The translations under genes were made by a program, and so were the position numbers. From a virus (lineage: Duplodnaviria; Heunggongvirae; Uroviricota; Caudoviricetes), in the IMG/VR virus record IMGVR_UViG_2534682157_000019: a stretch of DNA of 64,000 nt. One strand, 5' to 3'. The notes under the pieces were generated by a model that searched no databases, was not told where the DNA came from, and saw only the letters and a program-made list of their open reading frames with translations. Numbering within the stretch: the first letter of the stretch is position 1; each line of letters begins with the position of its first letter. Below are positions 49,001-50,700 of the stretch, in pieces.

Positions 49001-49065
49001 TCACCACCGTAAGGTTCCAATCATCGGGTGGTGAGACGCACAGGGTTGGAACTACCGGGAAACCG
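49001..49065. promoter_or_regulatory. Nested inverted repeats upstream of antirepressor paralog 3
   Basis: TCACCACC...GGTGGTGA (8 bp, 18-nt spacer) nested with GGTTCCAA...TTGGAAC, in the leader between the divergent genes at 48971 and 49320. Confidence 0.3.
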
Positions 49066-49319
49066 ACCGGCGAGCTTTTCAGCTCCCCCATGCGCCCCAC
49101 CATAATTCAGATGTGCGCGTGCATACGACAATAAAAAACACGCTCGCGGCGTGTGTTTGTCGCGGTCTCTATCCGGGGTTCCAATCCCGACGGCCAACTC
49201 GACCGTGCGAAGAATATAATCCCGGATAAGTGTTGTCGTCAACTCAGCATTGATGTTGTATTAATTGACAACGCTATGCACTGTTGTTATCCTTAACAAC
49301 ATAAATACACGGAGTTTTT

Positions 49320-49607
49320 ATGCCATCCAGACTGTATAAAGAGTTCATTCGCCATCTTGGGGAATCCGAATACATAAGGATTAAAATCTGGGAGGTGGCT
49401 CCAGCCGTTCTTGGTAGCCGCCATAACTTCAAATACAGCATGGCTTACGTTGTTGATGGTGTTTGCGTCATGCGCTACGACAACGAAAGAGGTAAAGGCG
49501 ACCACAAACACATTGGTGCTCAGGAAATCAGTACCCACTTTGTTTCCATCGAGCAACTCATTGCTGACTTCCTCCATGATGTAGAATCCATTCGCAGAGG
49601 TGCCTGA
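49320..49607 (+). CDS. Hypothetical protein (95 aa), first gene of an opposite-strand two-gene cassette
   Basis: ATG with GGAG SD; 8-nt overlap with the downstream ORF. Confidence 0.5.
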   Translation: MPSRLYKEFIRHLGESEYIRIKIWEVAPAVLGSRHNFKYSMAYVVDGVCVMRYDNERGKGDHKHIGAQEISTHFVSIEQLIADFLHDVESIRRGA

Positions 49608-49968
49608 TATGAAAACAGTTACAATACGTATTGAATCAATGGATGCTTTCACGGCAGATGTGTTGTCTGCCTTTAAAGCGGTTGCCGAAGGAATGACGTC
49701 AAAGAACGAAAGCATCGTTTCATTCCCAGACTGGCAAATGATGCATAAAGTGCTTACCCCTAAGCGCATGGACATACTCATGGCGATGACTGGTGCCGGA
49801 GAACTGTCAATCCGTGAGATTGCCGCTCTGGTCGGGCGTGACGTAAAAGCCGTACACACGGATGTAACCGCACTGATTAGCAACGGCCTCCTGGAAAAAG
49901 GAGAAAATGGAACATCTTTTCCGTATGACGACATCCACTTTGATTTTACGCTGGGTAAAGCTGCGTAA
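49600..49968 (+). CDS. Putative winged-helix DNA-binding protein (122 aa), second gene of the cassette
   Basis: C-terminal half (MDILMAMTGAGELSIREIAALVGRDVKAVHTDVTALISNGLLEK) reads as a winged HTH; translationally coupled to the upstream ORF. Confidence 0.5.
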   Translation: MPDMKTVTIRIESMDAFTADVLSAFKAVAEGMTSKNESIVSFPDWQMMHKVLTPKRMDILMAMTGAGELSIREIAALVGRDVKAVHTDVTALISNGLLEKGENGTSFPYDDIHFDFTLGKAA

Positions 49969-50018
49969 AATTCACCGCGCCGTCATTCTGGCGGCGCTTT
50001 ACCCCAGAGAAATATCAA

Positions 50019-50276
50019 TCACCGGATTGCCACATCCCACTCCGGCTCCTGCCATCTCAAATCCGGTGAATCATTTCTCGCCGGAATAACCATTACGTCC
50101 TTTTCCCTCCGCTCCCTTTCTATCGCCATCACAGCCAATGCTGCAACCATGATGTATTTTTGCTCGTCGGTTCCCGTTTCATAACGGTGCATGAGGGTAA
50201 ACTCGGGGCGATCAGTAACCTCAATGATTTCGTTAATTTCTTTAATTTCGAGAGGAATATTGATTTTGTTGTTCAC
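50019..50276 (-). CDS. Hypothetical protein (85 aa)
   Basis: ORF in nin-region operon. Confidence 0.4.
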   Translation of the reverse strand: MNNKINIPLEIKEINEIIEVTDRPEFTLMHRYETGTDEQKYIMVAALAVMAIERERREKDVMVIPARNDSPDLRWQEPEWDVAIR

Positions 50277-50409
50277 GTCATAACCTCAATATTAAAAATT
50301 CGTTAACATTAAATTTTGAATACCGGATGTTTACCCGTGTCCGGCGCACGACCTCACGTTGCAGCGTGAAGGTCTCCATTTTTCAAAACAGAGCAACAAT
50401 GGAGGATAA

Positions 50410-50700
50410 ATGGACAAAAAACTCAATCAGGCTCGCTGGAATTTTCATTACGAAACAGCCCGCTCAAATTACTTTCTTGAATGCTTCGGGGACTCTCTGG
50501 CTATTAAAGAGGGGTATCCAAGGACTATTTATGGCTTTGACGCAATATATCTTTATCTTGCCGGAAAATACGGATGGACTATTGCTCAGTGTCGTTCAAT
50601 GTCGACTGAGGACATTCGCCTTGCTCTCGCAACAGAGCTAGAAGCATGGACACCCCCTCAAGATGTGATGATTGATGAGTGTCTCTCCCGGAATGATTGA
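50410..50700 (+). CDS. Hypothetical protein (96 aa), opposite strand
   Basis: ORF with GGAGGA SD; 3' end overlaps the convergent 166-aa ORF. Confidence 0.4.
   Translation: MDKKLNQARWNFHYETARSNYFLECFGDSLAIKEGYPRTIYGFDAIYLYLAGKYGWTIAQCRSMSTEDIRLALATELEAWTPPQDVMIDECLSRND

Follow-up and report, generated by a model that had tools for sequence, protein, structure and literature searches.

A probable TumE-TumA toxin-antitoxin cassette in an exchangeable slot of an Stx1c-converting prophage of Escherichia coli

Durairaj et al. (Nature 2023, PMC10584680) defined the TumE-TumA superfamily of toxin-antitoxin (TA) systems. Six gammaproteobacterial DUF6516 proteins halted the growth of E. coli, and the products of the neighboring genes neutralized them fully. 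The toxin of Allochromatium tepidum lowered the incorporation of 35S-methionine, and RNase activity was proposed, not demonstrated. The partners of TumE are diverse and unrelated, and an order with the toxin gene downstream is predominant (clusters 1, 2, 4, and 6), not universal. Here, we analyze a gene pair on a stretch of 64,000 nt of viral DNA (IMG/VR record IMGVR_UViG_2534682157_000019, the whole of which is called the window in the following), which represents an Stx1c-converting lambdoid prophage of E. coli. We consider it likely that the segment 49244–49972 of the window is a self-contained type II TA cassette of the TumE-TumA superfamily and constitutes accessory cargo of an inducible Stx1c prophage. 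The pair resembles the described systems in a full-length profile match above the cut-off and in a two-gene arrangement with a small partner that is predicted to bind DNA.

Membership of the gene pair in the TumE-TumA superfamily

The product of the first gene, tumE, matched the Pfam family PF20126 (formerly DUF6516) with an E value of 2e-14 and 53.7 bits (cut-off 23.4) over profile positions 6–81 of 81, and PF20126 was present in all listed homologs of this protein (at least 120). Its RefSeq entry (WP_001141115.1) reads "toxin-antitoxin system TumE family protein"; in the GenBank phage record, the products of both genes of the pair are "hypothetical". The coordinates 49320–49607, which had been given for this gene in a preliminary description made from the sequence alone, were correct. 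The residues H35, K38, Y39, D54, N55, E56, G58, G60, D61, H64, and F84 were invariant over 65 TumE homologs, and R57, K59, H62, and E69 were nearly invariant. The TumE protein of the window carries every one of these residues. They cluster in H35, K38, and Y39 and in the loop Y53-D-N-E-R-G-K-G-D-H-K-H64, and the conserved polar residues among them form a putative active site. The AlphaFold2 model of TumE (predicted local distance difference test score, pLDDT, of 95.2) is a small alpha + beta protein with six strands in an antiparallel sheet and one C-terminal helix. A solved structural relative of TumE was not found.

The second gene, here called tumA-like or tumA, had been placed at 49600–49968 with a GTG start and, thus, an overlap of 8 nt with tumE. 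Its end was retained, while an ATG at 49609 is the likelier start: the sequence GAGGTG is located 6 nt upstream of this ATG, the NCBI Prokaryotic Genome Annotation Pipeline (PGAP) selected the same start, and the homologs of four further species (of Serratia, of Salmonella, and of two other bacteria) can be aligned from this methionine onward and all start with M-x-T-V/L-T. The overlap therefore disappears, while the tight coupling of the two genes stands, as only 1 nt separates the tumE stop codon (49605–49607) from the tumA start (TGA-T-ATG). TumA matched the Pfam family HVO_A0114 (PF25212) with an E value of 1e-24 and showed weak matches of the MarR/ArsR type besides. RefSeq lists it as "HVO_A0114 family putative DNA-binding protein" (WP_000860148.1). 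In the structural model, residues 40–112 form a winged helix (pLDDT 80–94) and the N-terminal part is poorly defined, with values below 50 for residues 19–33. The closest fold matches to the model were ArsR/SmtB and MarR regulators. The Pfam match, the fold model, and the fold matches together bore out the early guess that the second gene encodes a winged-helix protein. No match to RelB or ribbon-helix-helix families was obtained for TumA, which matched only HVO_A0114 and winged-helix families, and no solved relative was matched by sequence. In many NCBI records of homologs, the winged-helix antitoxin bears the name "glycosyl transferase family 1". This label looks like a propagated mis-annotation of what is a DNA-binding domain protein of 119 aa.

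A profile-guided scan with one genome per species yielded 588 relatives with the DNERGKGD motif, and the layout of the pair was read in the best 80 of these loci. In all 80 loci, which derive from other species, a TumA-type gene was located directly downstream of tumE on the same strand. The loci belong mostly to Pseudomonadota, with single metagenome-assembled genomes labelled Planctomycetaceae, Pirellulaceae, Vicinamibacterales, Methylomirabilota, and Synechococcaceae. The tumE-tumA pair was also present in four further loci, namely in a Serratia and a Salmonella prophage and at two chromosomal non-phage sites among metabolic genes. In the homologous loci, the two genes are likewise adjacent or overlapping.

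Selection on the pair was assessed by comparison with the locus copy of E. coli VL46 (L096, NZ_CM177010.1), which is 79% identical. The ratio of nonsynonymous to synonymous substitution rates (dN/dS) was 0.069 for tumE and also 0.069 for tumA; both genes are under purifying selection. Values against Serratia were left unused because the synonymous sites were saturated. In VL46 itself, an intact tumE of 95 aa with 85% identity is found at 2556–2843 without annotation. A Rha-family call in this strain (1638–2591) is over-long and overlaps the tumE start, and RefSeq therefore lists the antitoxin alone.

Table 1. Positions of the features discussed in the text (window coordinates; a dot marks features without assigned strand).
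Feature	Position	Strand	Basis
Antirepressor gene, ORF6N + P22_AR_C domains, predicted C4 target	48306–48971	-	Pfam PF10543, E 5e-20; PF10548, E 4e-7; RefSeq and GenBank annotation
C4-type antisense RNA, outside the cassette	49024–49107	-	Rfam RF01695, 71 bits (cut-off 45), full length 1–87
IsrK-like small RNA with its own terminator (49154–49138, hairpin and T-run)	49133–49206	-	Rfam RF01394, 54.9 bits (cut-off 50)
Divergent promoter for IsrK-like RNA, C4 RNA, and antirepressor: TTGACG, 18 nt, TATATT	49213–49242	-	Consensus scan, 10/12
Exchangeable cassette, 729 bp: promoter, operators, tumE, tumA	49244–49972	.	blastn against three sibling prophages
Palindrome O1, GTTGT-N8-ACAAC, over the -35 hexamer; predicted TumA operator	49255–49272	+	Pattern scan, cross-genus conservation
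Sigma-70-type promoter: TTGACA, 17 nt, TATCCT, TG upstream of -10	49265–49293	+	Consensus scan, 10/12; inferred function
Palindrome O2, GTTGT-N8-ACAAC, over the -10 hexamer, 28 bp from O1; predicted TumA operator	49283–49300	+	Pattern scan, cross-genus conservation
tumE, 95 aa, predicted toxin (TumE/DUF6516 family)	49320–49607	+	Pfam PF20126, RefSeq name, conserved residues
tumA-like gene, 119 aa, winged helix (HVO_A0114 family); predicted antitoxin and autorepressor	49609–49968	+	Pfam PF25212, RefSeq start and name, fold model
GC-rich hairpin GCGCCGTCA-ttc-TGGCGGCGC of the conserved right flank, just outside the cassette	49977–49997	.	Inverted-repeat pair, fold score
Conserved element of ~100 nt with three hairpins, ending with GGAGGATAA directly ahead of the start codon (ATG) of the 96-aa ORF	50307–50409	+	Comparison of genomes and viral contigs; no Rfam family
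96-aa open reading frame (ORF), second independent variable slot, possibly a small gene	50410–50700	+	Open frame, Shine-Dalgarno/ATG platform

Borders, promoter, and predicted operator of the cassette

We compared the region by blastn to three sibling prophages that carry other cassettes. In all three, the homology ended at 49242/49243 and returned at 49973/49974. These common breakpoints define 49244–49972 as the mobile unit. Between identical flanks, sibling L003 harbors genes for a RelE/ParE toxin and then HigA in the same slot, and sibling L004 (E. coli 2013C-3033) for a different RelE/ParE toxin followed by a helix-turn-helix (HTH) protein. Sibling L002 has ParD, a hypothetical gene, and HigA at this position. 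All three replacement cassettes are encoded on the plus strand. The slot is, thus, a recurrent landing place for TA pairs. The HigB-HigA and RelE/ParE-HTH cassettes of the siblings agree with the window cassette in the position in the slot, the orientation, and the borders, and also in their layout, with the toxin first, an HTH antitoxin second, and the genes tightly adjacent or overlapping. They differ in the toxin fold, RelE/ParE being unrelated to TumE, and in the antitoxin, which has an HTH of the Cro/C1 type and not a winged helix.

The left border of the cassette abuts the -35 hexamer of the divergent antirepressor promoter. Beyond the right border, the GC-rich hairpin (-18.5 kcal/mol, z = -3.2) is identical in all sibling prophages; its T-run is weak, and it is a possible terminator between the convergent genes. 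Examination of the cassettes in enterobacterial prophages (Serratia L009/L010, Salmonella L011/L012, and E. coli VL46) revealed that they adjoin, divergently, genes of the Rha, ASH, or antirepressor type, although this sample is small.

The window cassette occupies this slot in 9 of 5,426 complete E. coli genomes, and the exact TumE and TumA protein sequences are found on at least 1,000 contigs of draft assemblies. The chromosomes of several strains of Shiga toxin-producing E. coli (STEC) match the window at 100% identity. The induced podovirus phiSTEC1589-Stx1c (PQ600364) matches it at 99.9% over the 1.9 kb that were queried. This phage is functional, as it formed stable lysogens of MG1655 and MC1061 after its induction from strain STEC1589 (PMC12029490).

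In the RefSeq annotation, the minus-strand genes before the cassette are cro, cII, an O-like gene, a gene for a P-like ATPase, DUF1627, DUF977, a 166-aa gene, and an 85-aa gene, and those after it are the genes for the ORF6N antirepressor, BRO, NinB, NinE, DUF1364, RusA, NinH, and Q, followed by stx1c. The ORF list and this gene order confirm that the two plus-strand genes lie within the minus-strand early-right operon, and the neighboring genes identify the nin region of a lambdoid phage, both as first described. Phage "morons" are independent transcription units that are inserted between phage genes. The cassette resembles them in its own promoter, its orientation opposite to the operon, the hairpin after its last gene, and its patchy occurrence among near-identical phages. 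The term describes a layout and not a function, whereas the cargo is here an identifiable TA pair.

The predicted promoter of the cassette is overlapped by two palindromes of the form GTTGT-N8-ACAAC, O1 and O2 (Table 1). They are the only exact matches to this pattern in the window, where 0.06 were expected. The pattern was picked after the sequence had been seen, and weight is therefore placed on the comparative test. Serratia and Salmonella, with TumE identities of 68% and 60% to the window protein, have the same two palindromes with the same 28-bp spacing upstream of tumE, and the positions of the promoter hexamers are kept in these cassettes as well. In other lineages, the half-sites vary jointly (GTTGG...CCAAC, GATGT...ACATC). 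In 32 of 78 loci of other species, the 110 nt ahead of tumE contained a pair of GWTGK-N8-MCAWC palindromes with a spacing of 27–30 nt, compared to 0.03% of 3,141 control windows that were taken from these loci. As judged from these sequences, the paired palindromes bear the signature of a dimeric repressor site that co-evolved with its protein, and they are probably the operator of the antitoxin TumA.

The pair, thus, shows traits that are generic to type II TA systems: two small, co-directional, adjacent genes, a DNA-binding domain in the partner together with palindromes over the promoter that form a predicted operator, an occurrence in prophage and non-phage contexts, sharp borders, and selection on both genes. 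The preliminary description had read the small protein gene and its DNA-binding partner as the layout of a type II TA or abortive-infection module. The first half of this statement held with regard to family membership and anatomy, considering the TumE match, the winged-helix partner, the exchange of the cassette, the selection, the promoter with its palindromes, and the TA genes in the slot of the siblings.

Several observations weigh against the assignment to the TumE-TumA superfamily or limit its reach. The toxin gene is the first gene here and in the 80 loci read, whereas the toxin is mostly encoded downstream in the pairs of Durairaj et al. (PMC10584680). Their six tested pairs all originate from sulfur- and methane-oxidizing Gammaproteobacteria, none from Enterobacterales or a phage. 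As judged from the lengths of the synthetic DNA, the tested toxins are longer than the 95 aa of the window TumE, and the tested antitoxins are shorter; the latter are described as RelB-like. Partners of this kind, remotely related to RelB, are described for cluster 1 with its tested subcluster 1a, whereas the window partner is an HVO_A0114 winged-helix protein. A seven-stranded sheet with two helices was reported for the family, as opposed to the six strands and one helix of our model; the modelled fold is of the same general type, but shorter. The double palindrome over the promoter is not mentioned in the available part of the report, and among our own loci the palindrome pair was present in 32 of 78 and not in all. 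Finally, TumE was detectable by tblastn in only 1 of 50,697 phage records, and this rarity provides no tie of the family to phage biology in general. Since the report allows for diverse partners and a variable gene order, these differences do not exclude membership in the TumE family. They do mean that functional statements on the window pair are extrapolated: the toxicity of TumE and its neutralization by TumA are carried over by analogy from distant relatives outside this subfamily.

RNA elements and the 96-aa ORF outside the cassette

A leader with nested inverted repeats had been proposed at 49001–49065 for the plus-strand genes. The repeats exist, but they do not form a leader of these genes; they belong to a C4-type antisense RNA on the minus strand and its target. 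Within the C4 RNA, the segment 49027–49034 forms a perfect 8-nt pair with positions 49001–49008 of the antirepressor leader, and the segment 49046–49052 forms a perfect 7-nt pair with positions 49014–49020. In this respect the region resembles the ImmI-type C4 system of phages P1 and P7, in which a C4 RNA directly upstream of an antirepressor gene likewise has two segments complementary to the leader. By analogy, C4 would control the ORF6N antirepressor in the P1 style. An IsrK-like RNA with its own terminator precedes C4, which is reminiscent of IsrK of the Salmonella prophage Gifsy-1. It overlaps a weak match to the model of the C4 a1/b1 target (RF03163, 23.5 bits, below the cut-off). Stretches similar to GGTTCCAATCC were considered as a tRNA remnant. 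This was rejected, as ARAGORN detected no tRNA in the window and the stretches are the "UUGGAAC" pairing motifs of C4/IsrK. Rfam hits to tmRNA at 49224–49495 (9.8 bits) and to sR58 were dismissed as noise.

The C4/IsrK system is encoded on the strand opposite to the TA cassette and forms a separate transcription unit. Its promoter is located in the conserved left flank and is kept in the siblings up to the cassette junction. Since the whole C4/IsrK region lies in this flank and is unchanged beside other cassettes, it is not part of the TA unit. This arrangement bears on a different view of the pair, in which a small winged-helix regulator and a harmless co-factor would tune the adjacent antirepressor and prophage induction and would not constitute a TA system. 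The short distance of 13 bp between O1 and the -35 hexamer of the divergent IsrK/C4/antirepressor promoter would fit such a role, and so would the divergent Rha- or antirepressor-type neighbors of the enterobacterial prophage cassettes that we examined. We nevertheless regard a pure regulator as very unlikely, because the antirepressor promoter and the RNAs remain unchanged in siblings with unrelated cassettes, the pair occurs unchanged at non-phage chromosomal sites, and tested members of the family of the first gene are toxic (PMC10584680).

A TA cassette that ends at 49972 is also at odds with the anatomy of the preliminary description, in which the pair and a third plus-strand ORF of 96 aa formed one inserted three-gene block behind the structured leader. 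The 96-aa ORF and the inverted repeats exist, and three plus-strand ORFs do lie within a stretch of 1.4 kb. Nevertheless, such a block is extremely improbable: the exchanged segment stops at 49972, a conserved minus-strand gene (50019–50276) separates the pair from the third ORF, sibling L004 retains the region of the third ORF together with a different TA pair, and the repeats, which are segments of the minus-strand C4 RNA and of its target, are located beyond the cassette promoter, 250 nt upstream of it. Because of the situation in L004, the 96-aa ORF has to be assigned to a second slot that is independent of the TA cassette. In the window, this second slot (50277–51080) contains the 96-aa ORF and the minus-strand 166-aa gene; in its place, L002 (4670–5344) and L003 (4281–4955) carry a plus-strand gene for a DUF4145-domain protein.

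The 96-aa ORF is preceded by a conserved element with three hairpins (Table 1). Copies with about 80% identity were present in 989 of 5,426 complete E. coli genomes (about 18%). We collected 124 copies, 45 of them unique, from viral contigs and other loci (L098–L217), in which the homology stops exactly at the ATG (GGAGGATAA(A)ATG), and further copies are located at 1201–1303 of L097 and about 2501–2600 of L008. The fold of the element has a z value of -1.9, and no match was found in Rfam. The G-U versus A-C pairs in the variants of the element, which were read by eye as a sign of the strand, gave mixed signals. The element may serve as a platform from which accessory genes of prophages are expressed, or it may mark a boundary of recombination. 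In a class represented by phage ArgO145, it is reduced to the two distal hairpins, which adjoin the stop codon of the opposite-strand gene and are followed by no ORF. An identity of the element with DicF was rejected, as DicF is located about 240 nt away in prophages of O26 and yak strains and is absent from the window. The region upstream of ymfI in the e14 prophage of E. coli K-12 was likewise rejected as a relative, since it is not homologous. In e14 (L218), ymfI (plus strand, 4498–4839) and ymfJ (minus strand, 4777–5085) are convergent and share 63 nt. The window shows the same layout, with an overlap of 122 nt between the 96-aa ORF and the 166-aa gene, and the upstream sequences of the two loci are unrelated.

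We slightly favor the view that the 96-aa ORF is a real gene. A family match at the cut-off was not obtained for its product; the similarity to the ECs1072 family (NCBIfam NF033230) reached 26.1 bits (cut-off 70) and covered only residues 41–86. A search for a sigma-70 promoter of the ORF revealed no convincing candidate. Our first conclusion that the ORF is spurious was partly withdrawn after we had seen that the Shine-Dalgarno/ATG platform opens at least 11 unrelated ORF families. Nearly as plausible is that the frame arose by accident, partly antisense to the 166-aa gene, with the Shine-Dalgarno-like GGAGG merely being the arm of a hairpin. The ORF lacks annotation in the complete genomes examined and in the phage record, and no family match reaches a cut-off. 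Its conservation in other phages is limited to residues 57–96, which overlap the minus-strand gene, and the final 40 codons of the ORF run antisense to the 166-aa gene at the 3' end of the latter. In sibling L004, the frame is shifted by +1 two codons past the ATG, and in a relative with 74% nucleotide identity the frame is broken and the minus-strand gene intact. In the overlap with phage GER2, 6 of 9 substitutions fall on third positions of the minus-strand gene. Against an accidental frame stands the exact end of the conserved element at GGAGGATAAA-ATG, which opens an ORF in 103 of the 124 copies. These ORFs belong to at least 11 unrelated families of 57–109 aa, each longer than the shuffled controls (P 0.0015–0.03 each). 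In addition, PGAP annotated the equivalent ORF in the O26:H11 strain 11368, and the exact 96-aa protein, which NCBI lists as hypothetical, occurs on at least 1,000 contigs. Two of the ORF families behind the element resemble YmfI of prophage e14 below the curated cut-off. The +1 insertion of L004 affects the A-run behind the ATG (about position 3440) and leaves the frame open, and a 124-aa version with an upstream start is on record; the insertion may be a real variant or a homopolymer sequencing error.

Further RNA elements were observed elsewhere in the window. A match to the sok antitoxin RNA at 6062–6236 on the plus strand (111.5 bits, cut-off 59) suggests a type I TA locus of the hok/sok type. 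Two tandem matches to the small RNA STnc100 (43155–43368 and 43430–43641, minus strand, 198 and 139 bits) are located directly downstream of stxB1c (about 43724–43993). Matches to sRNA-Xcc1 occur at 48092–48182 on the minus strand and at 2809–2897 on the plus strand (68.6 and 71 bits). The former is located in the leader of the BRO-family gene (47405–48049), so that both antirepressor-like genes are preceded by a structured RNA.

Proposed mode of action and meaning for Stx prophages

From its own sigma-70 promoter, which is directed against the early-right operon, the cassette could be expressed in the lysogen while that operon is repressed. TumE and TumA would be produced from one mRNA, with translation of tumE first and of tumA from a start codon one nucleotide behind the tumE stop. 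By analogy with the tested relatives, TumE would block protein synthesis. TumA would bind TumE directly and so neutralize it, probably by means of the 35 poorly ordered residues at the TumA N-terminus, and a TumA dimer, alone or together with TumE, would sit on O1 and O2 through its winged helix and repress its own promoter. When antitoxin synthesis stops upon prophage loss or a shut-off of transcription, TumA would disappear more rapidly than the toxin, as antitoxins of other type II systems do, and free TumE would then inhibit translation and arrest growth. The phage or the host could benefit from this, for example by retention of the prophage or by exclusion of other phages.

The preliminary description had also offered abortive infection or phage defense as a role, for which no evidence was obtained. 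Anti-phage defense as the main role, by abortive infection or superinfection exclusion on behalf of the lysogen, would mean that TumE is freed when an incoming phage stops host transcription. This would be compatible with the TA mechanism proposed above, as it is a claim on the biological role. The location in a prophage, on the strand opposite to the lytic operon and with an own promoter, is in line with it. The same applies to the refilling of the slot by other TA pairs in the siblings, a turnover as seen at defense hot spots, and to the presence of several enterobacterial copies in prophages. PADLOC-DB 2.0, however, yielded no match for TumE, and TumA matched only the generic winged-helix part of the Csa3/CasR/CARF models (E about 1e-6). 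Our literature search found no paper that ties TumE/DUF6516 to phage defense. The phage context was examined for few of the 80 loci, and two of those examined (L013 and L015) are located among metabolic genes. We therefore consider defense an unlikely main role of this TumE-TumA pair.

The cassette is a module of a known kind, and the names of its proteins are already in RefSeq. New are the borders of the cassette, the TA-exchange slot next to the antirepressor control region, the predicted operator that is shared across genera, the reassignment of the "leader", and the platform ahead of the 96-aa ORF. TA cargo is common in prophages, and a TA cassette as such will therefore not surprise a specialist; the least expected item is the platform ahead of many unrelated small ORFs. 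The practical gain is a corrected reading of the region: Stx1c prophages that are common in human and food isolates of STEC carry a pair of the TumE family. With the enterobacterial subfamily, in which the toxin comes first and the antitoxin is a winged-helix protein, a version of the system is present in a tractable host and an inducible phage, and the predicted operator (GTTGT-N8-ACAAC, twice) offers a direct experimental handle.

As a tentative and rather speculative extension, two adjacent slots in the nin region of Stx prophages could be dedicated exchange points for cargo that is expressed in the lysogen, the first for TA pairs (TumEA, HigBA-like, ParDE-like) and the second for small proteins behind the three-hairpin leader. 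If this is true, the toxin-first cassettes of the first slot, beside an antirepressor controlled by C4/IsrK, would be anti-phage or induction-checkpoint modules, and with TumEA a TumE system would for the first time be linked to phage biology. In the second slot, an undescribed leader with a fixed Shine-Dalgarno sequence and ATG would drive at least 11 unrelated small proteins, the 96-aa ORF among them, and would represent an unrecognized expression platform for prophage accessory genes. A single slot that holds different TA families in near-identical Stx phages is in any case useful for studies on prophage stability, Stx induction, and the competition between phages.

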